Shown: positions 4,292-64,000, counted from the first letter of the stretch. The stretch: 64,000 nt of DNA from a virus (IMGVR_UViG_3300027668_002455:111850-175849); one strand, 5' to 3'. Notes: generated from the letters alone by a model not told the origin. Program-made: numbers and translations.

Positions 4292-4356
4292 TATTATAAT
4301 AATAATTTTTCGAAAAATGACTAGAAAAAGTGTAAAACATAGAAGGGATAAGGTAT

Positions 4357-4887
4357 ATGGCATCAATATATGACACTATAGCTCGGTGGTACACAGAAAA
4401 TACTTATGTAAAAAACCACATTGTAGAATGGCCAGAGAATTCAAATGATTACTGGTACTCTCTAGAAGATAGTAATAAGAGCAACGAGCCGAGCATCGGA
4501 TCGCCAGTTTGGGGCGGATTCGGGACTACGGACATCCTTGGTATAACAAAGCCACAATTCTTTTGGCCCTGCTCCTATAACCAAAGTACGTCAATTTCAC
4601 CTCGTGTTTTAACCATTCGATATGGTGACGGATATACCCAAAGAATTCCTGATGGTATTAATAACAATCTATTAAATTTAGAGTTGTCTTTTGATGGGAG
4701 AGATGAACAAGAAACTTTAGCTATTATCCATTTTTTAAACGTACGTCGAGCCTCAGAGGCTTTTCTTTATACTCCACCAGCGCCCTTTGCAACGGAAAGG
4801 CTCTTCGTATGCAAAAAAATAACTTCAGCAGTAATCTTTCGCGATAATTTTAATATAAAAGTTTCTTTTGAAGAAGTTCCGGATTAG
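4357..4887 (+). CDS. Minor tail protein, lambda gpM-like (distal tail)
   Basis: IRYGDGYTQRIPDGINNN...LSF...IIHFL...AFLYTPP signature; first gene of the M-L-K-I-J order. Confidence 0.85.
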   Translation: MASIYDTIARWYTENTYVKNHIVEWPENSNDYWYSLEDSNKSNEPSIGSPVWGGFGTTDILGITKPQFFWPCSYNQSTSISPRVLTIRYGDGYTQRIPDGINNNLLNLELSFDGRDEQETLAIIHFLNVRRASEAFLYTPPAPFATERLFVCKKITSAVIFRDNFNIKVSFEEVPD

Positions 4888-43505: not shown

Positions 43506-44172
43506 CGAGTCCTTTATTTACGAGCCAAACATTACCGGTTGAAACATCCGGAGCTTCGGCTATATCATGGTGGGGCATCTGTTGAGACTTAGGCCCCAGT
43601 TCCTCATGTAAGCCACCATCAAGCTCCCGCCCAAGTCTTGCCACCATTTCCTCTTTACTTTCATATTCAAAAGAAGGGTTATCCTTATAAGCCTCTTTAA
43701 AGTTTTTACCGGACCCACGCCGACCCTTTACATAATCTAAAATAGATTTAAAATCATCAACCTCTTCTCCCGAAAGATTATTTTTTTCAATTAATTTTTC
43801 TACCACGTCAAAGAGAACGTTCACTTGATTATGCCAATCATGTACATCCCTAATTGAATAACCTGTTTGGGTATCTATTTCTTCCTCACTAATTCGAACA
43901 GGGGCATTAATAACTTCCACCAAGGCCCCATTATCAAAGTCTCCACGCCACTCATGAATGGTTGGGTCAAATTTAAGTCTTTTAAATTTATAATGAGTTG
44001 AGTCGTGCTCTGTGGAACCAACGTTCCCGACGGCTCGCCCCATGTATGCCCCTGATGCTTTATTAAAAATAAGCAAAAAATCAGTAGCGCCGGAGCCCTC
44101 CATTAACTCATGAAGCTTGTCGCCCTGCTCATGAATGTGACTATTTAATTGGACATTGATTGTATCGCTCAT
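43477..44172 (-). CDS. Hypothetical protein (possible fibre-associated/assembly protein)
   Basis: Directly downstream of the fibre gene. Confidence 0.55.
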   Translation of the reverse strand: MSDTINVQLNSHIHEQGDKLHELMEGSGATDFLLIFNKASGAYMGRAVGNVGSTEHDSTHYKFKRLKFDPTIHEWRGDFDNGALVEVINAPVRISEEEIDTQTGYSIRDVHDWHNQVNVLFDVVEKLIEKNNLSGEEVDDFKSILDYVKGRRGSGKNFKEAYKDNPSFEYESKEEMVARLGRELDGGLHEELGPKSQQMPHHDIAEAPDVSTGNVWLVNKGLGGPNKGNTQ

Positions 44173-49175: not shown

Positions 49176-50987
49176 TCATATCATTATGGGAGCAAAAGTC
49201 TCCTCCGGACCTTCCTCCTTCGTTAGCATTATATCATAATAGCACTTTAAAGTCCACATGCCCAACATTAAAGTAGTATAGTTATCTCTTCGGGCCCTAG
49301 TAGAGGAGGTGTTTCTTTTTAAATGCTGGGGAAGGTCGAAAGTTTGAGTTCCCTTGGCCGTACTCTTCACCTCAATGAGAGCACACTGCTTTTTTGTTTG
49401 GTGTATTAAATTATCCTGCTCTTCGATAAGGTCTAACACGGTTTCACCTTTTTTAAATTTTAGCTCAATTTTTTGATTGGTCATCCTGTTAAAAGTCTCG
49501 TTACTGGCTGTCGCCTTAGATGCAAACCACAATCTTTTATGATCAATAGATGCCTGTAATTGCTCGTTGGCTTTTCGCAACCAGTTAGATGTAAATACCT
49601 GTTTAAAGCAAATTTTTCCATCTTGTTTATTATACTGTTTGCGAGAGCTCTTAATTTCTTTTTGATAATTAATTCCTTCTGCATCACTATTAAAATCAAA
49701 AAAATCTAGCTTCTTAGTAAAGGCCCCTGATTCATTACAGCTATCAATAAATTGAAACCCTGCATTATCAATACATATCATTTCAAAATCAAAAGCATTA
49801 CATAAATAATTAAAATATACAATGTGATCTTTTAGATCCCCACCAGCAATCGCATAACCATGGACAAGGGTTCCTGTTTGTGTCTCATTGTCAAGTTCAA
49901 TTACTGACATTGCAAAAAAGTCAGAACTGGGGCTATTAGAAAAACTAGGGTCAATTGCACAGATATACTTCGAGTCTGATTCGCCCACTATTTTTGTTGT
50001 GGGGTGTTCACCATCGGGGACAGTACACTCGTGCATTTTTTTTGCACTAAAATAAGAATCACTGCCGTCAGTAAATTGAGCACAATATTCCCGGCGAAAA
50101 GAGGCGTTGGAAGTTCCACCGCTTCTAGCCTCTTCAATAATAGTAGTATCTATCATCTCTTCTGGCAGAGCTTCATACCCTAATTGACCTATAAAATAAG
50201 AAGACTCTTTTTTTTCTTTACTGTAAATATTTTGCATCCACTCTTTGTAAGTTTTATATAAATTTTCAAAAGTATAAGAAGCTGACGATAGTGCTATCAT
50301 TTTAGAATTGTTTTCAAAAACCATTCTATCTTTTTCTTTCATTACCCCCTCTTTTATAAGGCTGTCTTCGACCTCTCTGATCTCTAAGCGTTCCTTCATG
50401 TTTTGTGGTGCAACCAAAAAGGGCATTAGAACATTATTGATAATATCCTCCGGTAAAAGAAGGTACTCATCAAGCACTAGTATGTTTGCTCGGAATCCTC
50501 GAATTTTTTCACCGTTAAGTGGAATGGCCGTAATCGAGCCTCCATTAATTTGCCATTCAAATTGGTCATTTCGTTTTGCCTTAGAACCAAACGCTTGAGC
50601 AAGAAGTTCAGCCCCTTTAGATTCAACCATCTTCTCTAAGTTGTTAAAAATAAAACGAGCAGTACGAAAGGTTGGGCCTGCAACAAGAATTTTTGTTCCC
50701 GGTTCAAAGATGCACTGTAGAAAACAAAATACAGCAGCCAAAAAAGTTTTTCCACAACCGCGACCCAAAACAAGCATACTAAAATTATTATTTAGCATAC
50801 CCTTTAACAGTACCTCTTGAAAGGGTGCAAGTTTGATTCCTGAAATAAGTTCCGTCGTAAGCCCTAGGTTAGCTCTTAAAAACTTAGCCAAAGTAATCTT
50901 GGACTCTTTATTTTCGAGCTCCCCTTTTAAGGCTCTGAACTGAGCATTAATATCAGTTAGCTTTTTTGTTTCTTGTGCGTACCACAT
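49176..50987 (-). CDS. terL: Terminase large subunit
   Basis: Q motif LAPFQ, Walker A GRGCGKT, Walker B ILVLDE, ALSSA, FRREY.AQF, nuclease AIDPS...SD and C-terminal D. Confidence 0.92.
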   Translation of the reverse strand: MWYAQETKKLTDINAQFRALKGELENKESKITLAKFLRANLGLTTELISGIKLAPFQEVLLKGMLNNNFSMLVLGRGCGKTFLAAVFCFLQCIFEPGTKILVAGPTFRTARFIFNNLEKMVESKGAELLAQAFGSKAKRNDQFEWQINGGSITAIPLNGEKIRGFRANILVLDEYLLLPEDIINNVLMPFLVAPQNMKERLEIREVEDSLIKEGVMKEKDRMVFENNSKMIALSSASYTFENLYKTYKEWMQNIYSKEKKESSYFIGQLGYEALPEEMIDTTIIEEARSGGTSNASFRREYCAQFTDGSDSYFSAKKMHECTVPDGEHPTTKIVGESDSKYICAIDPSFSNSPSSDFFAMSVIELDNETQTGTLVHGYAIAGGDLKDHIVYFNYLCNAFDFEMICIDNAGFQFIDSCNESGAFTKKLDFFDFNSDAEGINYQKEIKSSRKQYNKQDGKICFKQVFTSNWLRKANEQLQASIDHKRLWFASKATASNETFNRMTNQKIELKFKKGETVLDLIEEQDNLIHQTKKQCALIEVKSTAKGTQTFDLPQHLKRNTSSTRARRDNYTTLMLGMWTLKCYYDIMLTKEEGPEETFAPIMI

Positions 50988-51940
50988 TATAAAATTTTGT
51001 TATCATAACAATATTGCAGATCAACATGTCCATGATTTGAATCTCCTAAAAATATTTTCTCGATGACCCTAGAAGCATCATCCCTGTTATTAACAAATAA
51101 AAATTGAACATGGGGATAGGCTTGAATTAAATATCTTACATTATGAAAAACATATTCTGGAGTAGCTTTAATTTTTTTCGACACCTGTGGCAAATGATTA
51201 AAAGACCGGCATTTATTTATGTTTTCTTCTACCAAGATAATTAAACTTGTACTAGCTTCCCCCGCTCTTTCAATTTCATTTACGAATCTTTTAAAACCCC
51301 CGCTCAGAGTTCCAACAAAGTCGCTAACAGACTTTCTTTCTATATGACATGCCCCCGAGCAACCGGGGTGGCTAAATGCATAATCTCCAAATTTTAAATT
51401 CTTAACCTCAGTGTTCACACCAAACTTTAAAGGCTTTTGCTCTCTAGTATCTACATAAATTTTAAATTTCTGTTTAATAGATTTTTTATCTAATTCACGG
51501 CCATATTCTCCTTTGGGATTGCGGAATTTAGGAAGTAAGCCAATCTCCTCGCAAAGGTCATAGTAGTCTCCAAACAGCGCATTGTAGATTTGAATTGCTG
51601 GCATCATTAGTGTTCGAAGCTCAACTTGTGTTGGCGCAAATATTAAATTCTTTTTTTCTTTTCTTATTACGAGCAACTCCCTGCAGTAGCTCTTGGCTGT
51701 CTCCTTATCTTGATCTTTAAGCCAAAGCCTTAAATTAGTTCGTGAATTAAAATCATGTTCAAAGTAATAGTCTTTACTTTTGAACTTAATAATCTTGCCA
51801 TCATGTTTGTCGTGTCGTGGGTAATGCGTTTGATAATATTCAGCCATTCTCATCTTGTGGGCTTTAAGGTGACCGTGAAGCTGTCGCTCTGTGTCAAATA
51901 CCTTTTCGCAAGCAGCGCACTTCTGTTTTTTAGAATTCAT
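50987..51940 (-). CDS. C2H2 zinc finger + ERCC4/XPF-family nuclease
   Basis: CAACEKVF...LHGHLKAH; VDTREQ...L.FGDY...IERKSVSDF. Confidence 0.85.
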   Translation of the reverse strand: MNSKKQKCAACEKVFDTERQLHGHLKAHKMRMAEYYQTHYPRHDKHDGKIIKFKSKDYYFEHDFNSRTNLRLWLKDQDKETAKSYCRELLVIRKEKKNLIFAPTQVELRTLMMPAIQIYNALFGDYYDLCEEIGLLPKFRNPKGEYGRELDKKSIKQKFKIYVDTREQKPLKFGVNTEVKNLKFGDYAFSHPGCSGACHIERKSVSDFVGTLSGGFKRFVNEIERAGEASTSLIILVEENINKCRSFNHLPQVSKKIKATPEYVFHNVRYLIQAYPHVQFLFVNNRDDASRVIEKIFLGDSNHGHVDLQYCYDNKIL

Positions 51941-52514
51941 AATTAAAGTATTCGATGTCATCTTTATATAATCTTTCTATAGTCTTTATGGAGTTAGTGT
52001 TATAAAATTTTGAATAATGAGGTTTCCCTTTTAATTTCTTTTCACTACTTAGTTTGACAGTCGGTTTGTTTATTTTTTTACAAAGAGAATTAAAATCTTT
52101 TTGCAGGCTCTCGTAGCGGCCTATGAAATTCATGTTTATATTTCCATCTAAATCCTTTAGCCAATCGACTTGATTTGCTACCCATCTTCCCTTGTCGCAG
52201 TTTTCTAACGTGTCTGGGTATAGTTTAACATCATGGCTGTTTTTTATGTTTTTTATAAATCTATTAAATTTACTTTTGAGTTTTAAATAGGACTCCGATC
52301 TACTATCTTTAACGATGTCCCTGTTAAACCAAAAAAACCAAGACACCATTCTATCCCAAGGGTTCCTGACAAAAGAAAACTTAAAAGAAGTATACCAATC
52401 CCCCTCCCCGTTCGCATGATGCTCTTTCATCGTCATATGCAACGTCTTAGAATTAAAAGCCCCCTCTATACTTGTACCTCCAGTTTTATTTATGTGAATA
52501 AAAGTTAATTGCAT
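51930..52514 (-). CDS. Sulfotransferase (Sulfotransfer_2-like)
   Basis: 5'-PSB FIHINKTGGTSI; 3'-PB SFVRNPWDRMVS; FIGRYESL; YKDDIEYFNY. Confidence 0.9.
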   Translation of the reverse strand: MQLTFIHINKTGGTSIEGAFNSKTLHMTMKEHHANGEGDWYTSFKFSFVRNPWDRMVSWFFWFNRDIVKDSRSESYLKLKSKFNRFIKNIKNSHDVKLYPDTLENCDKGRWVANQVDWLKDLDGNINMNFIGRYESLQKDFNSLCKKINKPTVKLSSEKKLKGKPHYSKFYNTNSIKTIERLYKDDIEYFNYEF

Positions 52515-52519: not shown

Positions 52520-53641
52520 CTAACCATTTAGTACCTCGTCCTCACTTATACCGAGTATTCTAGCTTTAACCTCATCCATCGACGAAAGTTTTTCTACTTC
52601 ACCTTTAATAACTTTTTTGCGTAGCTCAGCTAGCTTTATAAGTTTTTGTCTAGACTCCTCTTCTTTCCATAGCTGTACTAAATTAATAATACTGGCATTT
52701 TCTTTAATTTGGTTTTTAAGTCTATCTGATCTCTTTTCTTTTAAATCATTAAGCAATTTATTTTGGCGGGTTACAGATTGATGGTAATCAGTTTGAGCTT
52801 TACCAATAGCCTCAACCAGTGACATTGAAATCCTTCTCCCATCTGTATCTGCAGCTACGTCATCAAGTAGATGTTGGAGATGTTCTACTCGCCTCTGGAT
52901 GTTCGAAGCAATTACTACCTCCGAGGCAAGAACGATATATTGATCTACCTCTTCCTGTGTTAAGTCAGATTTGTCATAAGTGTATCTTACAAAACTAGAT
53001 TCAAATAAATCACGATCTATTTGACTTTCAAAATGATTTATATGATGTAGAAATCTATAAGTATGCAAATAACCTATTAAAGCCTCGACACCCCGACGCT
53101 GAAAGGCTGTGATCTTATCTTTGTTAATACCATTTAAAACATACTTGTTAATTCGACTGACTATTAAATTTAAAGTTCTAGGGGGCTTATACTCTTCCGA
53201 AGGTACCGGGTTAGAATCAGCGGGCGATACATTAGATTGTTGAATGTCATTTTCTTTTTTGAACTCGCTTACCAAGCGGGTTTCCTTATGTAGGTTCGTA
53301 AGAGTATTGTCTTCAAAAATCATACGAGCTATATCTTGGTCCGTCATAGCATGTCCATTGTTGACAATGAACTCTTCCATTTCACTGGTCAGGCTTACAT
53401 CACTACGACCCACATATTCATGTGAGGCTTTCGCTTTAATATCCCTAGATACCAAAAAAGCTTTTAAACATTTACCATACTTACTTCTTCCGTCTTGTAG
53501 TTTTTCTTCTATGTCTGGAAAAGCAATTTGAACTAGCTCCTTTAAAGAGGGAGGCGTTTTTGGGCACCTATTCCATTCATTAATGATATCCTTTTGACGT
53601 TCGTCAGAAATAGTTAAATCTCCACTTTTGAAATCACTCAT
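52520..53641 (-). CDS. Hypothetical coiled-coil protein (candidate small terminase/DNA-binding)
   Basis: HTH-like MTDQDIARMIF and long C-terminal coiled coil; lies upstream of TerL. Confidence 0.5.
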   Translation of the reverse strand: MSDFKSGDLTISDERQKDIINEWNRCPKTPPSLKELVQIAFPDIEEKLQDGRSKYGKCLKAFLVSRDIKAKASHEYVGRSDVSLTSEMEEFIVNNGHAMTDQDIARMIFEDNTLTNLHKETRLVSEFKKENDIQQSNVSPADSNPVPSEEYKPPRTLNLIVSRINKYVLNGINKDKITAFQRRGVEALIGYLHTYRFLHHINHFESQIDRDLFESSFVRYTYDKSDLTQEEVDQYIVLASEVVIASNIQRRVEHLQHLLDDVAADTDGRRISMSLVEAIGKAQTDYHQSVTRQNKLLNDLKEKRSDRLKNQIKENASIINLVQLWKEEESRQKLIKLAELRKKVIKGEVEKLSSMDEVKARILGISEDEVLNG

Positions 53642-54402
53642 TAATAATCCACCTCCCCTTTATTTAAAACTTTTTTTACTTTTTCGATTATAGATTTTTT
53701 TATATTTTTAATTTGTTTGTAGCCGGGAATCCTGTTCTTTTCAGAAGTTCTATAACCCATTAGCCGTGCAACCTCTTCTTCGCTTTTATATTCTATGTAG
53801 AGATGTTTGTATACTTTCCACTCTATGGGTTTTAGTATCTCTTCCATTTTTATATGTAATTTTTTGGCAAATTTTTCTATATCAGTGTTATCGGAGTTTC
53901 TTGAAAATACTTCTTGGGGGTGATCTTCTAATGAGACAGGGAGCTTCGCGTCGTGTGCTGATTTTTTTGTTTTTTCCCAATGAGCATAAAGAGGGCATGT
54001 AGAATCTTGATCGGTGTAAATGGAGCAGGAGTTACTAGACTCAGCAGCAGCGCATCGTAAACATGGGCGCGCGTAATTGCCGTAGTTGTTTCTAATGAGG
54101 TTTTTTATTTGATTGGAGATTATCCTATTTATCCATGGGCCCAAGGGTTTGTCGGAATCATATAAATCCCATTTTTTATAAATATGAATCCTAAGAATTT
54201 GTGACACATCCTCAAAATCCATCCACGCCAGAACGGTTAAGTTCCACTTAGGTCTCCGCTTAATTATCTCTGTGTTGATTTGGTCAATTGAGTCTTCAAA
54301 AGAAGGCCCCTTTTTCTTTTTATTTTTTTTTGGTTTTTGTGATTTTTTCGGAGATTTTGTGGAATGGCCGCTCTGGCTATTTTTTGGGCGACCTCTAGGC
54401 AT
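53641..54402 (-). CDS. Phage RNA polymerase sigma factor (sigma70-family regions 2 and 4) with Cys-rich insert
   Basis: DFEDVSQ...YD...L..WINRIISNQIKNLIR; L...EWKVY...SEEEVARLMG...IKNIKKSI. Confidence 0.8.
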   Translation of the reverse strand: MPRGRPKNSQSGHSTKSPKKSQKPKKNKKKKGPSFEDSIDQINTEIIKRRPKWNLTVLAWMDFEDVSQILRIHIYKKWDLYDSDKPLGPWINRIISNQIKNLIRNNYGNYARPCLRCAAAESSNSCSIYTDQDSTCPLYAHWEKTKKSAHDAKLPVSLEDHPQEVFSRNSDNTDIEKFAKKLHIKMEEILKPIEWKVYKHLYIEYKSEEEVARLMGYRTSEKNRIPGYKQIKNIKKSIIEKVKKVLNKGEVDY

Positions 54403-56254: not shown

Positions 56255-57010
56255 TTATCCCAAGTGTTTTAGTTTTCCAACAAGGAATTTAACTAGCTCA
56301 GAGCGCATAATATCTTCTTCAGTAAATTTAAAAGTATATACTCCATGCTCTAGGCTGTCTTGGTCTTCATGAAAAAGATCATACATTTTACTAAAACCAC
56401 TTTTCCCCCCATGTAAATCAGTTTGCATAGGATCTGCCAGAACAAAGCACTTAGACCCTTCACCCAGACGGGTCAGGATGGTCGTAATTTCCTTTGTAGT
56501 GCAGTTTTGAGCTTCATCCATGATAATACACTTGTTCGTCCAGTTAACGCCTCTAGCGAAGTTTACGGGGAACATTGAAATACGCTCTTCTTTTTCCAAA
56601 CGCTCTGTAGTTGTGTCTGGAAGTAGCTCATCAAGTTTTTCTAAAAGAGGAATTTTATAGTAAGCCAGTTTTTCATCTGCACTTCCCGGTAAAAAACCGA
56701 TTCTTTGATCAGAAGATTCAACAGAAGACCTTAAATACACAAGATCAGAGATACATTTCATATTAAGCATCTGTAATGCACAATATACAGCGAGTAGGGT
56801 TTTACTTGTCCCTGCGGGACCATCAACAAATGTTATTTTTGTATTTCTATCTAAAGCGATACGAAAGAAATCCCTTTGTTTCTCAGTCCATTTGAACTGA
56901 TTGATTTTTATTTGTCTTTTAATCGGATCGAAGGCTGTCATTTCTTCTGCGATCTCATCCGCTAACTCGATTCTCTCGCCTCTCTTGGAGGCCTTGTTTC
57001 TTTTAGCCAT
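56255..57010 (-). CDS. phoH: PhoH-like ATPase
   Basis: GPAGTSKT, IGFLPG, FARG, IMDEAQN, LTRLGE, DP.QTD, DIMRS. Confidence 0.93.
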   Translation of the reverse strand: MAKRNKASKRGERIELADEIAEEMTAFDPIKRQIKINQFKWTEKQRDFFRIALDRNTKITFVDGPAGTSKTLLAVYCALQMLNMKCISDLVYLRSSVESSDQRIGFLPGSADEKLAYYKIPLLEKLDELLPDTTTERLEKEERISMFPVNFARGVNWTNKCIIMDEAQNCTTKEITTILTRLGEGSKCFVLADPMQTDLHGGKSGFSKMYDLFHEDQDSLEHGVYTFKFTEEDIMRSELVKFLVGKLKHLG

Positions 57011-57246
57011 GTATATATAATTACACTTTAAATTAAAAAAGTGCCCGCCGATTTTTTGACCTTTACCCCCAAGCATATTTAAATGTATTTAAATATATTT
57101 GAAAAAGGGGGGGGTGCCTTTATTTATATGATAAGAGATGTATATTAGAAGACTTTTGGTTTCTCGGGGAGACTCAGGATACCCCCCACGCACCGGAAAG
57201 GCAACAAAAAAAGACCGTTTTTTTTCAAAAAGGGGGTGGGGCTATA

Positions 57247-57326
57247 TTAAAATCGCCTTTAAATATCATTTTAAATACCATTTTAAACAATTACCTTAAA
57301 CGATTACCTTAAATGATTTCACTAAA
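57247..57326. repeat. Phased TTAAA direct repeats (12-13 bp period, 7 units)
   Basis: TTAAA at 57247, 57259, 57271, 57283, 57296, 57309; CTAAA at 57322. Confidence 0.8.
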
Positions 57327-57338: not shown

Positions 57339-57593
57339 TTAAATAGGGTTGTGATTTTCTAGGCCATACATACGGGCGACACTGCCATCTGGTCTGCGGT
57401 TATCGTCAAGGTCTATCTCCTCGGGTGGTGGCGCGAGTGGGTTACCACACGCAGTAAGGAAACGCTCCGCGTCAAAGCGTGGGTTGTCCTGCTCGAACTT
57501 AGCAACGGCAAGCAGTGCGAGTTTAGAGGCTGGCGCGCCTTGATTGGCTGCGTTAATAAGAGAGGCGATGAATTCGAAATGTTGTTTAGTCAT
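57339..57593 (-). CDS. Small early protein, T(K/R)xHF...PRFD..(R/K)F family, copy 1
   Basis: MTKQHFEFIA...FEQDNPRFDAERF; paralogue at 63472. Confidence 0.75.
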   Translation of the reverse strand: MTKQHFEFIASLINAANQGAPASKLALLAVAKFEQDNPRFDAERFLTACGNPLAPPPEEIDLDDNRRPDGSVARMYGLENHNPI

Positions 57594-57627
57594 AATATAA
57601 TAAGTGTTAAGTTTAATAGTGTTAGTG

Positions 57628-57996
57628 TTAATCTCTGCATCGGATGTCATTGCCATCATTATCATCGTACCATCCGATAACGGCTGAGCCATCCGAATCA
57701 CGCACAATCTCCTTGCCATAAGCGTACTCACGCGCTGGCTTGTGTGATGGTGCTTTAGCATCAGCGGTGAACGTGCGGTGGTCTTCTAAGAAGTCTTGCA
57801 CTTCATCCTCGGATGCGTAAAACACATCTTCAAATGCTACCGTGTCACCGTAGCCATCACCAAAGGCATTCTCTAACCATACACCCTCACAGGCTAGGAT
57901 GGTGAGAAGGCGGCAAGGCTCGCCTGTGTTTGCATTGATGTAAATTCTGCCACATTGCAGATCCGTTGCTTTTTTGTTTTGTTCTTTCATAATCAT
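57628..57996 (-). CDS. Small early protein with shared C-terminal module
   Basis: Ends GKEIVRDSDGSAVIGWYDDNDGNDIRCRD, nearly identical to the end of the 60726 protein. Confidence 0.75.
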   Translation of the reverse strand: MIMKEQNKKATDLQCGRIYINANTGEPCRLLTILACEGVWLENAFGDGYGDTVAFEDVFYASEDEVQDFLEDHRTFTADAKAPSHKPAREYAYGKEIVRDSDGSAVIGWYDDNDGNDIRCRD

Positions 57997-58008
57997 TTAA
58001 CTGTGTTA

Positions 58009-58045
58009 AGTATATCACACGAGGTGAGACATCCGCTGTCCTACC
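58009..58045 (-). promoter_or_regulatory. Type A element copy 1: 8-7-8 dyad + extended -10
   Basis: Minus strand GGTAGGAC-N7-GTCTCACC-TCGTGTGATATACT. Confidence 0.8.
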
Positions 58046-58235
58046 TGTTAACTTTCCCAACTTTCTTTACTGTGCGGGTGAATGGCTCACTGCCATCGGA
58101 GAAGCTCCGACGCCAAGCCTTGCCGTCTACGATACGTCGAGCGTGTGCCTCGTCCATCGCTTGGATGAATATCGATCCACCATCGGTGAAGGTTACGTTG
58201 AAAATTCTCTCTGGTTTCTTAGGTGTGTTTATCAT
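58041..58235 (-). CDS. Small early protein, F.V...FI.A..EAHARR family
   Basis: Paralogous to the 61078 protein. Confidence 0.7.
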   Translation of the reverse strand: MINTPKKPERIFNVTFTDGGSIFIQAMDEAHARRIVDGKAWRRSFSDGSEPFTRTVKKVGKVNR

Positions 58236-58261
58236 AATCTTTTTAGTTTCTTCTGTTGTGT

Positions 58262-58325
58262 CTCTCACTTTCAATACGAATAGTATACCTGAAAAAAACG
58301 AAAAAGTCAATCACTTTCTTTAAAA
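58262..58325 (-). promoter_or_regulatory. Type B element copy 1: sigma70 promoter + GAAAGTGAGAGA leader
   Basis: TTGACT-17-TATACT; block repeated at 59529, 61032, 61259 and 62849. Confidence 0.85.
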
Positions 58326-58364
58326 ACTATTCACAAAATAAATGGCAATTGTGAATAACTTTTG

Positions 58365-58448
58365 CTTGACAGGGGGCCTCGGCGGGGGGACCCTCGCAGA
58401 TAGTACGTGTACGTACTATCTCAGGCGGCCCGCCCCCGATTATATAAT
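58365..58448. repeat. Type C element copy 1: TTGACA, G-run, palindromic core, C-run
   Basis: ggcgggggg...agatagtacgt-gt-acgtactatct...cccccg. Confidence 0.9.
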
Positions 58449-58472
58449 GCAAGCCTTTTAATAGTAAAAGGT

Positions 58473-58541
58473 TTACCAGTCCATCCCGATGCATACGCCA
58501 AACATACACACCATAATGATAAGTAAAGGATACAATTCCAT
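58473..58541 (-). CDS. 22-aa hydrophobic peptide
   Basis: MELYPLLIIMVCMFGVCIGMDW*; GGAGGT RBS. Confidence 0.6.
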   Translation of the reverse strand: MELYPLLIIMVCMFGVCIGMDW

Positions 58542-58542
58542 A

Positions 58543-58848
58543 CTAGGCTACCTCCTTATATACTGGGCTTGTGCGGTGTCCTTCGCCGTAGGAAGGGCAC
58601 ATCGCTGTGACTTTTTTGTTGCCTGTTTGGGCGAACAGCTTGCCAACCGTATAGTCAACCCAACCGCGAGAGGTTTGCTGCTCACCGATGTACTCAATCG
58701 CATCTTGCTGGGCTGCGTGGAAAGTCAGAGTACCGACCTTGGCGCGAGTGCTGAAGTGAGCGCAAACAGAATCAAATCCGCTGAACTTGTTTGTGTGGCG
58801 AAATCCCTTTGCGTGGATCTCGGTATAATAATGTTGTATGTCTCTCAT
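58543..58848 (-). CDS. Hypothetical early protein
   Basis: ORF MRDIQHYY... tightly packed after the HAD gene. Confidence 0.65.
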   Translation of the reverse strand: MRDIQHYYTEIHAKGFRHTNKFSGFDSVCAHFSTRAKVGTLTFHAAQQDAIEYIGEQQTSRGWVDYTVGKLFAQTGNKKVTAMCPSYGEGHRTSPVYKEVA

Positions 58849-58852
58849 AATC

Positions 58853-59314
58853 TTAATTAAATTCCTTCTGGTCTTCACTTACTAACTCACCCAGTTCACC
58901 CAGTCCATCTATGTTGCGTGGGTCATTGTCTACTAGCTTACGCATCACCCACTTAACGATACGCTGCTTGCGTTCGACTATTCTCTTGCTACTTACCTTT
59001 GCCCAATCGGCTGGCTCGTTAACGTCTACGCCTACAGTGATCACGCGCCCTACATTGAAATTCAATTTCTCAAGTGCCATCCGAATGAACCAAGCACTGT
59101 CATTGCCTCGTGCAGTGAGGATATCAACGTGCTTGCCTGAATCCCTGACCAGCTTGCCTAGTGGGGTGAGATCGCTTTCCTCTAGGTTAAGGATAGCGGC
59201 AGGATTAGTGAAATCAAATAAGCGTTTGGAGTCGCGCATCTCTTTGATGAGTGTGCCGTCTAGGTCAAATAATGGTTGTAAGGTTTCTTCTGTCATATCG
59301 TTTTTAATTATCAT
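58853..59314 (-). CDS. HAD-superfamily phosphatase
   Basis: FDLDGTL (motif I), ILTARG (II), K (III), LVDND (IV). Confidence 0.8.
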   Translation of the reverse strand: MIIKNDMTEETLQPLFDLDGTLIKEMRDSKRLFDFTNPAAILNLEESDLTPLGKLVRDSGKHVDILTARGNDSAWFIRMALEKLNFNVGRVITVGVDVNEPADWAKVSSKRIVERKQRIVKWVMRKLVDNDPRNIDGLGELGELVSEDQKEFN

Positions 59315-59320
59315 ACGTAT

Positions 59321-59357
59321 AGTATATCACACGAGGTGGGACATTTGCCGTCCTACC
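59321..59357 (-). promoter_or_regulatory. Type A element copy 2
   Basis: agtatatcacacga-ggtgggac-atttgcc-gtcctacc. Confidence 0.8.
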
Positions 59358-59359
59358 CT

Positions 59360-59524
59360 CTAACTTTCTTCATCCTCTACAGGGTGGAGGAAAGGGCCAA
59401 GGTGGGCGTTATCCCGTTGCCATTGGCGGTTGCCTTCCCGCACTTGCCGCACGGATTCGTTCCAGCGTTGCACACGGGCATCTGCCTTGCGTTGCTCTTC
59501 TTGTACTTCTTCTCTAGTTCTCAT
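59360..59524 (-). CDS. 54-aa charged helical early protein
   Basis: MRTREEVQEEQRKADARVQRWNESVRQ...; directly after a type B promoter/RBS. Confidence 0.7.
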   Translation of the reverse strand: MRTREEVQEEQRKADARVQRWNESVRQVREGNRQWQRDNAHLGPFLHPVEDEES

Positions 59525-59528
59525 AAGT

Positions 59529-59593
59529 CTCTCACTTTCAATACGGTAAGTATATCACAAACATCCGCGAAAGTAAAGAACTTTCTTTAAAAA
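59529..59593 (-). promoter_or_regulatory. Type B element copy 2
   Basis: TTTACT-17-TATACT with GAAAGTGAGAGA leader. Confidence 0.75.
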
Positions 59594-59630
59594 CTATTAA
59601 CAGGCTGTGAATAACTTTCTGACCTTTACG

Positions 59631-59722
59631 CTTGACAAGCAGGCCGGCGGGGGGACCCTCGCAGATAGTACGTGTACGTACTATCTCGGCGGGTGGGCCC
59701 CCGCCTATAAAAGTACAACTAT
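59631..59722. repeat. Type C element copy 2
   Basis: cttgacaagcaggccggcggggggaccctcgcagatagtacgtgtacgtactatctcggcgggtgggcccccgcctataaa. Confidence 0.9.
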
Positions 59723-59737
59723 TAAATACTAATTTCT

Positions 59738-59836
59738 TTATAATGTTTCTATGTAGATTCCTGCTACCAGTATAATCGCGAAGGATACGATACCGATAAT
59801 AAGAACAAAATAAATATCTCTGTAGTCGTCTTTCAT
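59738..59836 (-). CDS. 32-aa single-TM peptide
   Basis: MKDDYRDIYFVLIIGIVSFAIILVAGIYIETL*. Confidence 0.55.
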   Translation of the reverse strand: MKDDYRDIYFVLIIGIVSFAIILVAGIYIETL

Positions 59837-59837
59837 A

Positions 59838-59906
59838 TCACTTTATACTTAAGTAAAAGGATCCAAACATAAATACAAAAACACTAATAATTAATAATAA
59901 TTCCAT
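59838..59906 (-). CDS. 22-aa hydrophobic peptide
   Basis: MELLLIISVFVFMFGSFYLSIK*; start abuts the upstream stop. Confidence 0.55.
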   Translation of the reverse strand: MELLLIISVFVFMFGSFYLSIK

Positions 59907-60074
59907 TTAGGCAAATTCCCCCGTGCCGTGAACATACCAAACGGGATAAAGCTTCTCGTTGGCATATTGCGGAAAATGCATCTTAAAGTTTTGAAGCGCA
60001 CCCGCCTTGTCAAATCCGCAAGTGTTGAATGTTTGCCCGTTGCGTAAGTTGATAGTAAATTTAAATCCTTTCAT
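59907..60074 (-). CDS. 55-aa early protein
   Basis: MKGFKFTINLRNGQTFNTCGFDKAGALQNFKMHFPQY... Confidence 0.65.
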   Translation of the reverse strand: MKGFKFTINLRNGQTFNTCGFDKAGALQNFKMHFPQYANEKLYPVWYVHGTGEFA

Positions 60075-60078
60075 AATC

Positions 60079-60267
60079 TTAAAAAGTTAAAATGTCAATT
60101 GCCTCAATAAGTTGAAATCCAAAGTCTAAAATCACAGCAACAAATAAAATTGTCACAACGAACTTAATCATTGGCATAAACACTTCATCACGAAATGCTT
60201 GATTGAATGCTTCGTTTATGTCTTGCAATGTCCCGACTATGGGTAGTTTGTTTTTGTTTTTCATCAT
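60079..60267 (-). CDS. Small membrane protein
   Basis: C-terminal TM segment. Confidence 0.6.
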   Translation of the reverse strand: MMKNKNKLPIVGTLQDINEAFNQAFRDEVFMPMIKFVVTILFVAVILDFGFQLIEAIDILTF

Positions 60268-60446
60268 AATTCAATTGGTCTTGCGCCCGTGAGGATGCCT
60301 TTAATGGCGGGTTGCATATGCCCCACAACGTCCAGCCTTGCGAGAGCCTTGGCTTGTGGGGTTGGGTTGTTAGCTGCCCACTCATTCCACAATGGGGATG
60401 ATGGGAGGGGTTTCGGTGCGCCTGTGGCGGTCAGTAGTTTTTTCAT
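60264..60446 (-). CDS. Hypothetical early protein
   Basis: ORF in a packed operon; GGAGG RBS. Confidence 0.6.
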   Translation of the reverse strand: MKKLLTATGAPKPLPSSPLWNEWAANNPTPQAKALARLDVVGHMQPAIKGILTGARPIEL

Positions 60447-60451
60447 AATCT

Positions 60452-60718
60452 TTACGCCTCCGCCGTATCAAATGTGAATGTCTCGCCTTCGTCGCTTGAG
60501 TAAATCTCAAACAGTCGTTTAGTGATGGGGTTCCACACTTGCACAGTTTCAAGGCCCGCGCCTTCACCATCAAATGTGTGCCAATTCATAATATGATATG
60601 TCCCCATTTTAATAGGATGTTTCACCCGCGCATCGGTGCTGCGCCTGTGCAGAGTCACCTTGCCTTGGTTCAAGTCGTTGGGGTTGGTATCTTCGTAGGT
60701 TGCTTCGTACTGTTTCAT
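60452..60718 (-). CDS. Hypothetical early protein
   Basis: Start revised to MKQYEATY. Confidence 0.65.
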   Translation of the reverse strand: MKQYEATYEDTNPNDLNQGKVTLHRRSTDARVKHPIKMGTYHIMNWHTFDGEGAGLETVQVWNPITKRLFEIYSSDEGETFTFDTAEA

Positions 60719-60725
60719 AATCGTT

Positions 60726-61022
60726 TTAATCTCTGCAACGAATATCGTTGCCATTTTCATCATCGTACCATCCGACAACAGCCGAACCATCAGAGTCCCG
60801 CACAACTTCTTTGCCGTGCCAAAACTCGCGAGGTGACCAAGGTTTTTCTACCTTCGCCGCAATCTCTTCAATGGAGGTTACAAATGCACCGTTTGGGAGG
60901 TTGTCCCGCTTGTCGGCGATTAAGGTTGCGAGTTCCAAATTTTCGGTTTGGATCTCATACTCTCCGAATTGACCATAGCGGTCTTCGGTTTCTACTCTGA
61001 ATTTTTTCATTTTGTCTTTCAT
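60726..61022 (-). CDS. Chimeric small early protein
   Basis: N-terminus resembles 61785 (MK.KMK.FRVETE); C-terminus resembles 57628. Confidence 0.75.
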   Translation of the reverse strand: MKDKMKKFRVETEDRYGQFGEYEIQTENLELATLIADKRDNLPNGAFVTSIEEIAAKVEKPWSPREFWHGKEVVRDSDGSAVVGWYDDENGNDIRCRD

Positions 61023-61031
61023 AATCTTGTT

Positions 61032-61095
61032 TCTCTCACTCTCAATACGTAAAGTATACCTGAAATTCTTTAAAAAGTCAAGCACTTTCTTTAAC
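61032..61095 (-). promoter_or_regulatory. Type B element copy 3
   Basis: TTGACT-17-TATACT; the TGA stop of the upstream gene lies inside the -35. Confidence 0.85.
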
Positions 61096-61248
61096 TTTTT
61101 CTGTGGGCAATACCCACAGCACCTTACCAAGGGCCAATGCCCGACCCATACCCACCGCAACGCGGCGAGCGTGTGCCTCATTCTGGGCGTTGATAAAAGT
61201 GGTTTCGCCGTAGGCCCAACTAACTTCGAATGTTTGTTCTTTTTTCAT
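61078..61248 (-). CDS. Small early protein, EAHARR family
   Basis: TFEVSWAYGETTFINAQNEAHARR. Confidence 0.7.
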   Translation of the reverse strand: MKKEQTFEVSWAYGETTFINAQNEAHARRVAVGMGRALALGKVLWVLPTEKVKESA

Positions 61249-61258
61249 AATCTTTAAT

Positions 61259-61323
61259 CTCTCACTTTCGATACGTAAAGTATACCTGAAAATTCTGGAA
61301 AAGTCAATCACTTTCTTTAAAAA
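61259..61323 (-). promoter_or_regulatory. Type B element copy 4
   Basis: TTGACT-17-TATACT with GAAAGTGAGAGA leader. Confidence 0.85.
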
Positions 61324-61360
61324 GTATTAACAAAAAAGTTGCAAATGTTGATAAAAAAGA

Positions 61361-61461
61361 CTTGACAAGCAGGCCGGCGGGGGGGGCCCGTGCAGATAGT
61401 ACGTGTACGTACTATCTCGAGAGGTGGGCCCCCGCCTATAAAAAGGCAAGTATTAAATACT
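61361..61461. repeat. Type C element copy 3
   Basis: Near-identical to copy 2, including the trailing gtattaaatac. Confidence 0.9.
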
Positions 61462-61470
61462 AGTTTTTTT

Positions 61471-61542
61471 CTAGTCGCTCCAAATATAATCGTCGGCGTT
61501 CCAACCTAGTATAATAATCGCGATAATAAATATAATAATCAT
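61471..61542 (-). CDS. 23-aa hydrophobic peptide
   Basis: MIIIFIIAIIILGWNADDYIWSD*; GGAAAGG RBS. Confidence 0.55.
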   Translation of the reverse strand: MIIIFIIAIIILGWNADDYIWSD

Positions 61543-61543
61543 T

Positions 61544-61771
61544 TTACCTTTCCATACTTTCTTCGTAGGTAAGCACTCGCGTGCCTTGGCTACCGATAAT
61601 TTTCGAACGGTCAACGTAAACGTCAATCTCGTTTTCTGTTAGCTCTAACTCTTCACCGTCTTGATCGATCACGATCACGGTGTCAAATTCTGTGATTTCG
61701 TCAACTATCATCAGTTGCATTCCTACGCGAACTTCGTCGCCTACTTTTACTTGTTGGTTTTCTATTGTCAT
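61544..61771 (-). CDS. Small SH3/KOW-like beta protein
   Basis: VKVGDEVRVG...VDEI...VIVIDQDGEE. Confidence 0.6.
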   Translation of the reverse strand: MTIENQQVKVGDEVRVGMQLMIVDEITEFDTVIVIDQDGEELELTENEIDVYVDRSKIIGSQGTRVLTYEESMER

Positions 61772-61784
61772 AATCTTAAATCTC

Positions 61785-62075
61785 TTACATTTCCGAATAG
61801 GTTCCATCGTAGCAGCTTGGCTCATAAGTCTCTGGCTGCGCGTCATACCAAAACTCTTCGGCGGTGGGCATCATATCGGAAAAGTCATCCTCGATTTTTT
61901 GAGTGCTCTCCTGCACTTCGGATATCTCTTTAACGTCCACCACCATTACGTGGGGCTGTTGTTCGGCGATTGCGTTAGCAACTTCCCAGCTCTCGGCTTG
62001 GATGTCGTAAGCATTCTTGCTTACTGAATAATACGATTCAGTTTCGACTCGGAATGTTTTCATTTTGTTTTTCAT
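61785..62075 (-). CDS. Small acidic early protein
   Basis: MKNKMKTFRVETE...IQAESWEVANAIA; acidic tail. Confidence 0.7.
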   Translation of the reverse strand: MKNKMKTFRVETESYYSVSKNAYDIQAESWEVANAIAEQQPHVMVVDVKEISEVQESTQKIEDDFSDMMPTAEEFWYDAQPETYEPSCYDGTYSEM

Positions 62076-62090
62076 ATTGTCTATGCTATA

Positions 62091-62127
62091 AGTATATCAC
62101 ACGAGGTGGGACATCCGTAGTCCTACC
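62091..62127 (-). promoter_or_regulatory. Type A element copy 3
   Basis: ggtgggac-atccgta-gtcctacc. Confidence 0.8.
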
Positions 62128-62350
62128 TGCATCTTTCTTCATCTTTTTCTCTGTTCAATTGTTGCTCCTCCTCATCGGTGAAAAGCTTGCCTCTCTCAAT
62201 GGACTGGATCTCCATGCCTTTCATGCCTTTGCCAAAGCTCCTGCCAAAGAACTCTCTGCGCACTTGCGCGAATGATGCTGCGGTTGCACCCCAACGGGTT
62301 CCGTTGGTGGTGGTTACGATGAAATCTTGTTTGTTGTTTTCTTTATTCAT
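62123..62350 (-). CDS. Small early protein
   Basis: ORF bounded by two type A elements. Confidence 0.7.
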   Translation of the reverse strand: MNKENNKQDFIVTTTNGTRWGATAASFAQVRREFFGRSFGKGMKGMEIQSIERGKLFTDEEEQQLNREKDEERCR

Positions 62351-62359
62351 TATGCTTAT

Positions 62360-62396
62360 AGTATATCATAGGAGGTGGGACATCCGTAGTCCTACC
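62360..62396 (-). promoter_or_regulatory. Type A element copy 4
   Basis: agtatatcatagga-ggtgggac-atccgta-gtcctacc. Confidence 0.8.
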
Positions 62397-62622
62397 CTAA
62401 AACCTTTTCAATAAACTTTTCACCCACGCATTCAACGTGAAACTGGTTCCTTGGCATCCAGCCAAGCCACTTGCCCGACCTTAAAAGCCACTGCGCACCG
62501 TGCATGCTTTCCGCTTCTTTTGTGAACACCGGCCCGCGCTCACTGATGCGGTTCTTGGTGCGTTTGCATGCCCTGCTTGTCGGGCTTATCATTATCGTTC
62601 TCATGTCTGTTTCAATCATCAT
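62392..62622 (-). CDS. Small basic early protein
   Basis: Start revised to the ATG 6 nt after the -10 hexamer. Confidence 0.7.
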   Translation of the reverse strand: MMIETDMRTIMISPTSRACKRTKNRISERGPVFTKEAESMHGAQWLLRSGKWLGWMPRNQFHVECVGEKFIEKVLG

Positions 62623-62628
62623 GCGTCT

Positions 62629-62665
62629 AGTATACCACGCGAGGTGGGACATTTGCAGTCCTACC
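62629..62665 (-). promoter_or_regulatory. Type A element copy 5
   Basis: agtataccacgcga-ggtgggac-atttgca-gtcctacc. Confidence 0.8.
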
Positions 62666-62840
62666 CTTTAATTTCTTTTACTCGGATGCTACCGAGTCGG
62701 GCAACGTCAGGGAAAAGCTTTGCAGCTATCTTAAAAGCGGCTCGCAAGTCAAATGCTTGGATGGTTTCGGTTTGCTTGCAAGCGGGACGGCTAGGGTCTA
62801 CTTGCGTTACTAGGGTTAGTTCGAATAATTTGTCTTTCAT
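62661..62840 (-). CDS. Small early protein
   Basis: MKDKLFELTL...IQAFDLRAAFKIA. Confidence 0.7.
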   Translation of the reverse strand: MKDKLFELTLVTQVDPSRPACKQTETIQAFDLRAAFKIAAKLFPDVARLGSIRVKEIKG

Positions 62841-62848
62841 AATCTTTT

Positions 62849-62902
62849 CTCTCTTACTTTCAATACGTAAAGTATACAGGAAAAATCGGGAAAAGTCGAT
62901 AA
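62849..62902 (-). promoter_or_regulatory. Type B element copy 5
   Basis: TCGACT-17-TATACT with GAAAGTAAGAGAGA leader. Confidence 0.75.
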
Positions 62903-62941
62903 CCAACTGTGTCATAAAAAAGAAAGTTTTTGCATTTTGTT

Positions 62942-63019
62942 GTTGACAAACGTGCCGGCGGGGGGGGCCCGCCGGATAGTACGTGTACGTACTATATGGA
63001 AAGCTTGCTATTAAATAGC
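62942..63019. repeat. Type C element copy 4 (right C-rich arm absent)
   Basis: gttgaca...ggcgggggggg...gatagtacgtgtacgtactat...gctattaaatagc. Confidence 0.85.
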
Positions 63020-63038
63020 GGCTTTATGATAGTCGTCG

Positions 63039-63191
63039 CTACTCCTCACTAGCTCGCAGCACTAGCTGCTCCCAGTAATCACCATCCGCGCGGTAGCGCG
63101 TAAGGCTGTCGGCCTCAAGCTGGGCCTCGATGTCGGGGGTGATAGCCTCCTCGCAGGAGACTTGGATCATATCGTGTAGGTCGTTCATCAT
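63039..63191 (-). CDS. 50-aa acidic early protein
   Basis: MMNDLHDMIQVSCEEAITPDIEAQLEADSL... Confidence 0.6.
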   Translation of the reverse strand: MMNDLHDMIQVSCEEAITPDIEAQLEADSLTRYRADGDYWEQLVLRASEE

Positions 63192-63210
63192 AATTTAATT
63201 TCTGTGATTG

Positions 63211-63426
63211 CTATCGGTACATTTCATTGACTTCCCAAGCGCGTTCCAGCTTGGCGTAATCGGTTTCAGTTGTGCCTCGCCCCTCTCCGTGCTGGAGTTC
63301 ACGAAATGCTACCTGTGCATCGCGCAGGGTTGCTTCGCCACAGGCGAGAAAGAGATGTTTTGCCGTGGAGTTTGTACGGCCCTCAGAGGGATTTTGATTT
63401 TTCTTCATATGTTCGTCGTTCATCAT
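63211..63426 (-). CDS. Small early protein
   Basis: TATAAT lies 6 nt before the ATG. Confidence 0.65.
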   Translation of the reverse strand: MMNDEHMKKNQNPSEGRTNSTAKHLFLACGEATLRDAQVAFRELQHGEGRGTTETDYAKLERAWEVNEMYR

Positions 63427-63471
63427 TTAAAAATTATATCAGATTGGTTGAAAGTTACAAGGAAAAGTTAT

Positions 63472-63708
63472 TCACACACCCTTCTCATAGATAGGGCCAT
63501 TATCCGACCAGCAGTCGGCGTGAACCTCCTCCACATAAGCCTCAAACTTGGCACGGTCAAACCGTGGGTGAGTTTGCTCAAAAAGGATGGCGTACGCTTG
63601 CGCGGTTCCTTCCCTGTTTCCCTTGTCATCGACTTGACCGATAATCTCGGCGATGAGGGTGAAGTGTTTGCGGGTGAGGTTTAGGGATTGCGCTTCGTTA
63701 ATTAACAT
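63472..63708 (-). CDS. Small early protein, T(K/R)xHF...PRFD family, copy 2
   Basis: LTRKHFTLIA...FEQTHPRFDRAKF. Confidence 0.75.
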   Translation of the reverse strand: MLINEAQSLNLTRKHFTLIAEIIGQVDDKGNREGTAQAYAILFEQTHPRFDRAKFEAYVEEVHADCWSDNGPIYEKGV

Positions 63709-63784
63709 GAAAGAAGTATAACAGAATGGCGAAAGATTGCAACAATTAAATTCACGAAGTTATTCACAGGCTGGGCATAAAAAA

Positions 63785-63910
63785 GCTTGACAAACAGGCG
63801 CGGCGGGGGGGCCGGCCAGATAGTACGTGTACGTATGATATTGTACGTATACGTATTGTACGTGTACGTATGACATTGTACGTATACGTATTGTACGCGT
63901 ACGTATGATA
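63785..63910. repeat. Type C element copy 5, expanding into five tandem GTACG(T/C)(G/A)TACGTA cores
   Basis: 35-bp higher-order unit gtacgtgtacgtatga(t/c)att-gtacgtatacgtatt repeated about 2.5 times. Confidence 0.9.
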
Positions 63911-63925
63911 TATCATTATTTCGCG

Positions 63926-63970
63926 CTTATTTGTTTCTTATTTGTTTCTTATTTGTTTCTTATTTGTTTC
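63926..63970. repeat. 11-bp tandem repeat (cttatttgttt) x4
   Basis: Visible directly. Confidence 0.9.
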
Positions 63971-64000
63971 TTTCTTATTTCGTTATCGGGCGTTTCTTTC

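Follow-up and report, generated by a model that had tools for sequence, protein, structure and literature searches.

A repeated array of promoter-like cassettes in a variable small-gene region of an uncultured marine siphophage

We analysed a 64,000-nucleotide (nt) stretch of viral DNA (IMGVR_UViG_3300027668_002455:111850-175849; the window hereafter) from the genome of a large, uncultured tailed phage of siphophage type and marine lineage. On the minus strand at 57.3-63.9 kb, 24 open reading frames (ORFs) of 22-153 amino acids (aa) form an array together with repeated non-coding elements, named A, B and C. This array is likely to be a set of regulatory cassettes of the PeSL (promoter-early stem-loop) type, independent of the known ones and richer, which mediate modular shuffling by general recombination in a hyperplastic and probably early-expressed region. 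About every second gene would receive its own strong host-type (sigma-70-like) promoter from a few repeated composite cassettes. A sequence-only reading of the same DNA had described five modules, in which a fixed non-coding scaffold carries interchangeable mini-genes. The copies of C are numbered C1-C5 from low to high coordinate.

Repeated elements of the array

The repeated scaffold proved to be real. A, B and C occur only at 58.0-63.9 kb and nowhere else in the 64-kb window, and their numbers are far above chance. The C core, ATAGTACGTGTACGTACTAT, is a 20-bp palindrome which is exact at 58400, 59665, 61396 and 62976 and has 2 mismatches at 63820; with both strands counted, there are 9 core matches vs 0.01 expected. 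Element A (GGTAGGAC-N7-GTCCCACC-N5-TGnTATACT; 5 copies vs 0 expected) has a stem of 8 bp and a loop of 7 nt over the -35 position, followed by the extended -10 TGnTATACT. Element B consists of TTGACT-17-TATACT and the leader CGTATTGAAAGTGAGAGA, with an A/T-rich upstream tract (5 copies vs 0 expected). C is located at transcription-unit borders, about 90-100 bp upstream of B, and its hairpins with G/C-run arms have folding energies of -29 to -42 kcal/mol (z -3.3 to -4.7).

The earlier inventory of A, B and C was right as far as it went, but it did not list a fourth repeat, the start junction AAGATTATG (9 copies), a stop/start junction of 9-15 nt, TAAAGATTATG. Nor is the array complete at five modules, as it runs beyond the window end, where two relatives (L099 and G002) show further C copies. 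In total, 12 promoter-like sites were found for 24 genes (5 A, 5 B, and the g01 and g02 promoters), and strong consensus promoters are concentrated in the array. The earlier reading gave B as the strong promoter of modules 1-4; module 3 has two B copies, and module 5 has two other promoters. An Rfam search returned only spurious microRNA matches to TA/CG repeats. The features are listed below, from high to low coordinate.

63916-63981, minus strand: A/T-rich 11-nt tandem repeat, plus-strand unit TTATTTGTTTC, about 5 copies, upstream of the core cluster; layout also in L099 and L086
63820-63924, minus: C5, about five tandem core-like dyads (GTACGTNNACGTA), 15-20 bp spacing, 35-nt period
63790-63819, minus: G/C-run hairpin and TTGTCAAG motif after C5
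63760-63768, plus: DnaA-box 9-mer TTATTCACA
63715-63742, minus: predicted promoter TTGCAA-16-TGTTATACT; g01 ATG 6 nt past the -10, leaderless if transcribed from it
63472-63708, minus: g01, 78 aa, paralogue of g24
63433-63476, minus: DnaA box and predicted promoter TTGTAA-16-TATAAT; g02 ATG 6 nt past the -10
63039-63426, minus: g02 (71 aa) and g03 (50 aa)
62935-62998, minus: C4, core at 62976-62995, one self-complementary G/C hairpin, TTGTCAAC
62850-62899, minus: B4, predicted promoter TCGACT-17-TATACT and conserved leader
62661-62840, minus: g04, 59 aa, K1 family
62629-62665, minus: A, hairpin and TGnTATACT; putative leaderless start of g05
62392-62622, minus: g05, 76 aa
62360-62396, minus: A before g06
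62123-62350, minus: g06, 75 aa, family F0, several paralogues in relatives
62091-62127, minus: A before g07; left breakpoint of the L047 cassette swap
61471-62075, minus: g07 (96 aa), g08 (75 aa) and g09 (23-aa hydrophobic peptide)
61365-61445, minus: C3, two-armed hairpin, core at 61396-61415
61258-61307, minus: B3, predicted promoter and leader
61078-61248, minus: g10, 56 aa, K1 family, paralogue of g22
61032-61081, minus: second B copy of module 3
60726-61022, minus: g11, 98 aa, chimera with g07-like N-terminus and g23-like C-terminus
59738-60718, minus: g12, g13, g14, g15, g16 and g17; a 91% relative is without g13-g14, the indel ending at two AAGATTATG repeats
59635-59715, minus: C2, two-armed hairpin, core at 59665-59684; L009 homology breaks at the core centre
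59606-59614, minus: DnaA-box 9-mer near C2
59528-59577, minus: B2, predicted promoter TTTACT-17-TGnTATACT and leader
59360-59524, minus: g18, 54 aa
59321-59357, minus: A; putative leaderless start of g19
58473-59314, minus: g19 (153 aa), g20 (101 aa) and g21 (22-aa hydrophobic peptide)
58370-58450, minus: C1, two-armed hairpin, core at 58400-58419
58350-58358, minus: DnaA-box 9-mer near C1; a second near-box, inverted, at about 58326
58261-58310, minus: B1, predicted promoter and leader
58041-58235, minus: g22, 64 aa, K1 family; last codons and TAG stop inside A
58009-58045, minus: A before g23
57339-57996, minus: g23 (122 aa) and g24 (84 aa), last cargo before the non-coding gap and phoH
56255-57076, minus: PhoH-like ATPase, a conserved gene downstream of the array that served as the anchor for retrieving relatives

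Comparison of 21 A copies, drawn from five genomes, shows three constant features: the right arm ATGTCCCACC, the extended -10 TGnTATACT and an ATG placed 6-7 nt beyond the -10. The left arm varies, and no compensatory changes were seen in the stem. A therefore looks like a sequence-specific promoter for leaderless or near-leaderless messenger RNAs (mRNAs). It also gives the preceding gene its last codons and TAG stop. The distance between -10 and ATG at the g01 and g02 promoters is the same as at the A-type ones, and the ATG lies 6-7 nt past the -10 hexamer at 63715-63708, 63433-63426, 62629-62620 and 59321-59312. Judged from this geometry, mRNAs from the A-type, g01 and g02 promoters would be leaderless.

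Rearrangements among relatives

The exact C core was found in 6 IMG/VR contigs (7 stretches) and in 105 metagenome stretches, which are marine and belong to surveys such as those of Tara and JGI. Over modules 1-2, a 91% relative (L009/L017) keeps the order of the window and yet is mosaic, with 100%-identical blocks alternating with blocks of 45-77% identity. One block gives way to the next at A1 and A2, at the upstream end of B2 and in the middle of the C2 core. It lacks g17 as well as g13-g14, which in the window lie between two AAGATTATG copies (a 15-nt repeat). In a 99% identical strain (L047), the segment consisting of A and g07 is exchanged for one consisting of an A variant, a new 69-aa ORF and a second A variant; this swap ends inside the A hairpin on the left and at the start junction TAAAGATTATG on the right. 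Nine further metagenome contigs hold the same genes, mostly with 60-100% protein identity, in other orders. For example, one variant reads 'B g10 A g02 g08 g09 C B A g11 g12 g15 C B g18 ...' and another reads 'A g02 g08 g15 C B g18 ... phoH'. In the PhoH-anchored relatives, the presence of C, A and B is patchy (C without A, A without C, or none), and the same gene families stand in differing contexts. Variants with reordered, missing or replaced genes thus bear out the idea of a conserved scaffold whose interchangeable cargo carries its own expression signals.

Breakpoints, read from the ends of BLAST alignments, were located relative to the repeats. The elements A, B, C and the start junction together occupy 27% of the region and contain 31 of the 61 distinct breakpoints (p = 6e-5). 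Enrichment is highest at the start junction (about 3-5 fold), where 5% of the sequence receives 26% of the alignment ends. Gene orders therefore differ between related contigs and breakpoints are enriched at the repeats, the reverse of what the sequence-only reading had expected for ordinary duplicated promoters and terminators. Independent sponge metagenome contigs span the A1, C3 and C4-B4 junctions as they are in the window. Logan contig joints at A, B and C (e.g. 58065>59310, 62938>63785, 59511>61258 and 62671>61544) were not used as evidence, since their shorter sides are only 20-68 nt, the length of the repeats, and they may be placement ambiguities.

Cargo genes

The cargo contains two pairs of paralogues (g22/g10 and g01/g24) and the chimera g11, in agreement with the paralogues and chimera noticed at first. 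Moreover, the hydrophobic tiny ORFs g09, g16, g17 and g21 precede C3, C2 and C1, in line with the tiny membrane peptides proposed near C. Third codon positions hold 62% of the substitutions between homologous cargo genes, which indicates that the mini-genes are real genes under protein-level selection. The sequence-only reading had suggested possible host-takeover or anti-defence roles for the cargo. Using Pfam and PHROG, no clear family was found for any of the 20 cargo genes scanned (four tiny peptides left out); g19, which has a DxDGT motif, gave a weak HAD/polynucleotide-kinase-phosphatase match, and g01 matched only unnamed viral clusters in the protein atlas.

The K1 family (g04, g10 and g22; 55-70 aa) is nearly always the first gene after C-B. 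Its AlphaFold model is weak (predicted local distance difference test, pLDDT, 65) and has the topology beta-beta-alpha-beta. The best Foldseek match of this model is the RNA-polymerase epsilon subunit YkzG (E = 0.37), and in VIA-align T7 Gp2 (Z 4.6) and epsilon (Z 4.1) are tied with ribosomal proteins and anti-CRISPRs. The modelled likeness to the epsilon subunit or T7 Gp2 may serve as a lead only, and we assign no fold.

In the arrays of relatives, larger cargo that is common to unrelated phages was also seen, namely mycobacteriophage L5 gp88-like (PF17338), L5 gp82-like (PF25735) and DUF932 proteins (L008:5880-6629, L008:8325-9212 and L084:4649-5284).

Proposed mechanism and the case for simple duplication

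In the mechanism we favour, recurring composite cassettes would supply the expression signals. A would place a stem-loop over the -35 and an extended -10 so close to the ATG, 6-7 nt on, that the mRNA is leaderless; B would provide a near-consensus -35/-10 promoter with a conserved leader; and C, at the unit borders, would combine the dyad, the G/C-run hairpins, DnaA boxes and a TGTCAAG motif kept at a distance of 27-30 nt. The stop/start junction is the fourth component. A protein bound at the C core could co-ordinate or insulate the early units. The short repeats recur in the same orientation, which points to general homologous or short-homology recombination between copies as the probable pathway. 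Such recombination would delete, duplicate, swap or reorder the genes in between, either within one genome or by exchange between co-infecting relatives, and all recombinants would retain working expression signals.

Several points weigh against this mechanism. No recombination gene was identified in the sequence examined. No copy of C was flagged as an intrinsic terminator on either strand; there is no U-tract, and T-runs begin only 15-20 nt past the stem, so C is not a canonical terminator (some relatives have a predicted canonical terminator just upstream of the C core). The element A is the weakest for breakpoints (1.3-fold), 30 of the 61 breakpoints are outside all elements, several of them inside paralogous genes, and breakpoints taken from alignment ends are imprecise. 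Selection alone would also be expected to enrich breakpoints at gene borders. A relative with 74% PhoH identity (L019) is without A, B and C and yet has a variable small-gene region, indicating that the elements are not needed for plasticity. Finally, the comparison rests on assembled contigs, and metagenome contigs can be chimeric at repeats of 50-90 nt; a chimeric origin is harder to reconcile with alternative orders that are found again in independent assemblies, with variants that differ throughout their sequence, and with the sponge contigs that span window junctions unchanged.

Some of these points are what one would expect if the repeats were ordinary early promoters and terminators, duplicated by tandem gene duplication, with mosaic borders left by selection for intact genes. 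The weak enrichment at A, the breakpoints outside the elements and the plasticity of L019 all suit this explanation, as does the company of paralogous genes, the K1 family following C-B three times. However, it does not account well for the clean swap in the 99% strain with both ends inside repeats, the g13-g14 indel flanked by two copies of a 15-nt repeat, the loss of L009 homology precisely at the centre of the C2 core, or the crowding of alignment ends at the start junction. We regard simple duplication as unlikely.

The C core and its neighbouring DnaA boxes

In 130-143 distinct C copies, the 20-bp dyad is nearly invariant, partly since the search required it, and the flanks vary. G/C-rich arms are present on both sides in 33 of 130 copies, on the downstream side only in 57 and on the upstream side only in 30. 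An arm-swap test found no specific pairing of the arms (own -35.4 vs swapped -40.4 kcal/mol), and no specific covariation was detected. TGTCAAG follows 27-30 nt past the core in 53 of 140 copies. The core itself is a 9-2-9 dyad that is asymmetric only at its centre, where AC, GT and AT occur in the proportion 120:20:22 relative to the inferred gene strand. Cores are also found as pairs 44 bp apart and as tandem clusters adjoining A/T-rich repeats.

A DnaA-like 9-mer had been proposed for each module. The 9-mer TTATNCACA occurs 4 times in the array, beside C1, C2 and C5 as proposed, and in only one further place, at the g02 promoter. Across 372 kb of related loci, DnaA boxes reach 0.55 per kb vs 0.046 expected (about 12-fold), with a peak 60-80 nt from the core start, and some of them are perfect (TTATCCACA). 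In one relative (G003 43779-43850; L010 at about 7776-7860), three tandem TTATTCACA boxes, 11-13 nt apart, stand beside a cluster of three core dyads and have an origin-like look.

The arms, the TGTCAAG, the DnaA boxes, the pairs and clusters, and the bias of the centre speak more for the site of a dimeric protein than for a terminator or a point of crossover. On these sequence features, the likeliest role of the C core is to bind a dimeric DNA-binding protein, encoded by the phage or by the host. By analogy, this protein may repress or insulate in the manner of stoperator-binding proteins or KorB, or it may initiate replication as at lambda-ori-like iterons. A search for it by co-occurrence returned, as the most widespread neighbouring families, proteins without a DNA-binding domain, and ParB_N and Rad52 domains were absent from the relatives' contigs, which are partial.

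If the C cores were iterons of a replication initiator, the cluster at 63.7-64.0 kb would be a lambda-ori-type origin and the single cores its satellites, an arrangement that may coexist with a cassette role. Three to five tandem dyads at 15-20 bp spacing lie by A/T-rich direct repeats and DnaA boxes in the window, L099, L086, G003 and L011, and both the triple boxes of G003 and the excess of boxes near the cores are consistent with such an origin. Against it, each genome has at least 10 dispersed copies, always at unit borders upstream of promoters, for which a transcriptional role fits better; no initiator gene was identified beside the cluster, and no skew or replication evidence was found. 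We hold the iteron explanation to be unlikely too, slightly more so than simple duplication. More doubtful again is a bolder version, in which the whole C unit (dyad, hairpin, TGTCAAG and paired DnaA boxes) would be a site for a phage protein and host DnaA, acting both as a switch or insulator for at least 10 early units (as a stoperator-/KorB-like or iteron-origin set) and as the preferred crossover point that mobilises promoter-plus-gene modules, perhaps as packaged mini-circles, throughout a widespread lineage of marine phages.

An integron-like or other site-specific system, in which a recombinase encoded elsewhere would cut the asymmetric 2-nt centre of C (or A) and cassettes would move as circles, is very improbable: the 9-2-9 dyad with its asymmetric centre in one orientation relative to the genes (AC:GT = 120:20), the one homology break at a core centre and the roughly 40% of the genome outside the sequence scanned speak for it, but borders are of four kinds, most breaks lie away from C, the cassettes have their own promoters, and an operator better explains cores in 44-bp-apart pairs and tandem clusters with AC, AT or GT centres.

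Comparison with known systems

The integron-like mechanism had been suggested by the sequence-only reading, which also stated that the window holds no recombinase gene. The latter is correct for the 36 larger window ORFs scanned with Pfam, and the tyrosine and serine recombinase families PF00589 and PF00239 had no match in the partial contigs of four relatives (0 of 4). With no such recombinase found, several kinds of boundary, cassettes with their own promoters and no specific covariation of the C arms, the array is not integron-like in mechanism. It does resemble an integron in being a row of small, unrelated, exchangeable genes with palindromic separators and one orientation. However, no IntI was found in 36 window ORFs or in the contigs of four relatives (roughly 40% of the genome lay outside the scan), there is no attI or single Pc in contrast to the 12 promoter-like sites per 24 genes here, and the separators are sequence-invariant, whereas attC sites are conserved in structure and variable in sequence.

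The closest likeness is to the PeSLs of T4-like myoviruses. In these cassettes a stem-loop is joined to a sigma-70-like promoter; they are repeated in hyperplastic regions of ORFans, where recombination between copies gives adjacent indels, swaps and mini-circles (Arbiol et al. 2010, PMC2839356; Comeau et al. 2014, PMC4122927). Both systems consist of repeated intergenic cassettes of about 50-100 bp, in which a strong sigma-70-like promoter and a stem-loop often overlap; here the composite is found in A (8-bp stem over the -35 plus TGnTATACT) and in the C hairpin with the B promoter. In both, the cassettes are concentrated in hyperplastic regions of small ORFans (all copies are in the array here), indels, replacements and reordering between close relatives occur at or beside them, and moved genes keep their own promoter.

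The differences are also clear. The array belongs to a marine siphophage with a 3667-aa tape measure, not to a T4-like myovirus, and the sequences are unrelated. It has several cassette types within one array. Its A-type promoters and two others abut the ATG, which would leave the mRNAs without a leader; PeSLs, in contrast, have a Shine-Dalgarno sequence at their end. Nothing in PeSLs corresponds to the 20-bp dyad with its G/C-run arms, fixed TGTCAAG and DnaA boxes. Promoter and terminator activity and mini-circles have been measured for PeSLs; the array is described here from assembled contigs. The tape measure (PF10145), the lambda-like tail genes, a large terminase of only 24% identity and the lack of a DNA match in cultured phages make the array an analogue of PeSLs rather than a member.

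In cluster A mycobacteriophages, stoperators are the sites of the L5 gp71 repressor, which binds these asymmetric 13-mers as a monomer (PMC9283540). Like C, they recur many times as one conserved site within the short gaps between early-region genes, show a strong orientation bias relative to transcription, and have a plausible role in genome-wide silencing or insulation by one DNA-binding protein; L5 gp82-like and gp88-like genes also occur in the relatives' arrays. In contrast, the C core is a 20-bp 9-2-9 dyad, and no gp71-like repressor was identified. Dyad or repeat sites are likewise known from lambda-type iteron origins and from the global operator sets of plasmids, such as the KorB OB sites of RK2 and the omega heptads of pSM19035. 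As in those systems, dyad sites here are clustered by A/T-rich repeats and DnaA boxes, with single copies upstream of many promoters; the difference is that no cognate protein was found (no ParB domain in the partial contigs of relatives).

To our knowledge, T4-like myoviruses are the only phages in which modular shuffling by PeSLs has been described to date. The array would represent the same logic, independently evolved and richer, in an abundant uncultured lineage of marine siphophages, and provides a concrete, testable model for the turnover of phage ORFan regions in the ocean. It also offers a set of very compact natural promoters, as predicted, with leaderless ones among them, and defines a regulatory site (20-bp dyad and DnaA boxes) that is a candidate bait for its binding protein.

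Genome setting

The window encodes a tape measure of 3667 aa (PF10145) at 16301-27304, a gpJ-like fibre of 2876 aa with LamG domains and lambda-type minor tail proteins, together with a T4-type large terminase (TerL), a PhoH-like ATPase, a tubulin-like GTPase, an ERCC4 nuclease and a sigma-70 region 2 protein. TerL is 24% identical to those of large Bacillus and Lactococcus siphophages, and PhoH is at most 37% identical to that of any cultured phage. Among cultured phages, Megablast and blastn found no relative, no DNA match and no C core. An N4-like phage, in which a virion RNA polymerase would use hairpin promoters, was ruled out, the 3667-aa ORF being the tape measure. Public runs containing the window sequence are marine or sponge metagenomes, and a 67.6-kb relative has a CheckV completeness of 43%.

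A tape measure of this size would imply a tail of unusual length. The sigma-70 region 2 stands alone in a window protein (53641-54402), while the relative G002 encodes a full sigma-70-family factor with regions 2, 3 and 4 (L012:2405-3412); these proteins suggest that the phage may redirect the host RNA polymerase after the early phase. The ERCC4 protein, with a structure-specific nuclease domain of XPF/Mus81 type, is encoded at 50987-51961, directly upstream of the large terminase gene, and the tubulin/FtsZ-family GTPase (PF00091) at 41000-42190, within the structural-lysis region. A sulfotransferase (51930-52514) and a family-2 glycosyltransferase (3509-4366) are found among the structural genes. 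Between the array and phoH, the non-coding gap at 57075-57318 contains tandem repeats of 10-13 nt (ATATTTAAAT, TTTAAATACCAT and TTAAACGATTACC), G-run/C-run hairpins and T-tracts, and could be a terminator cluster, a protein-binding site or a packaging-related site.

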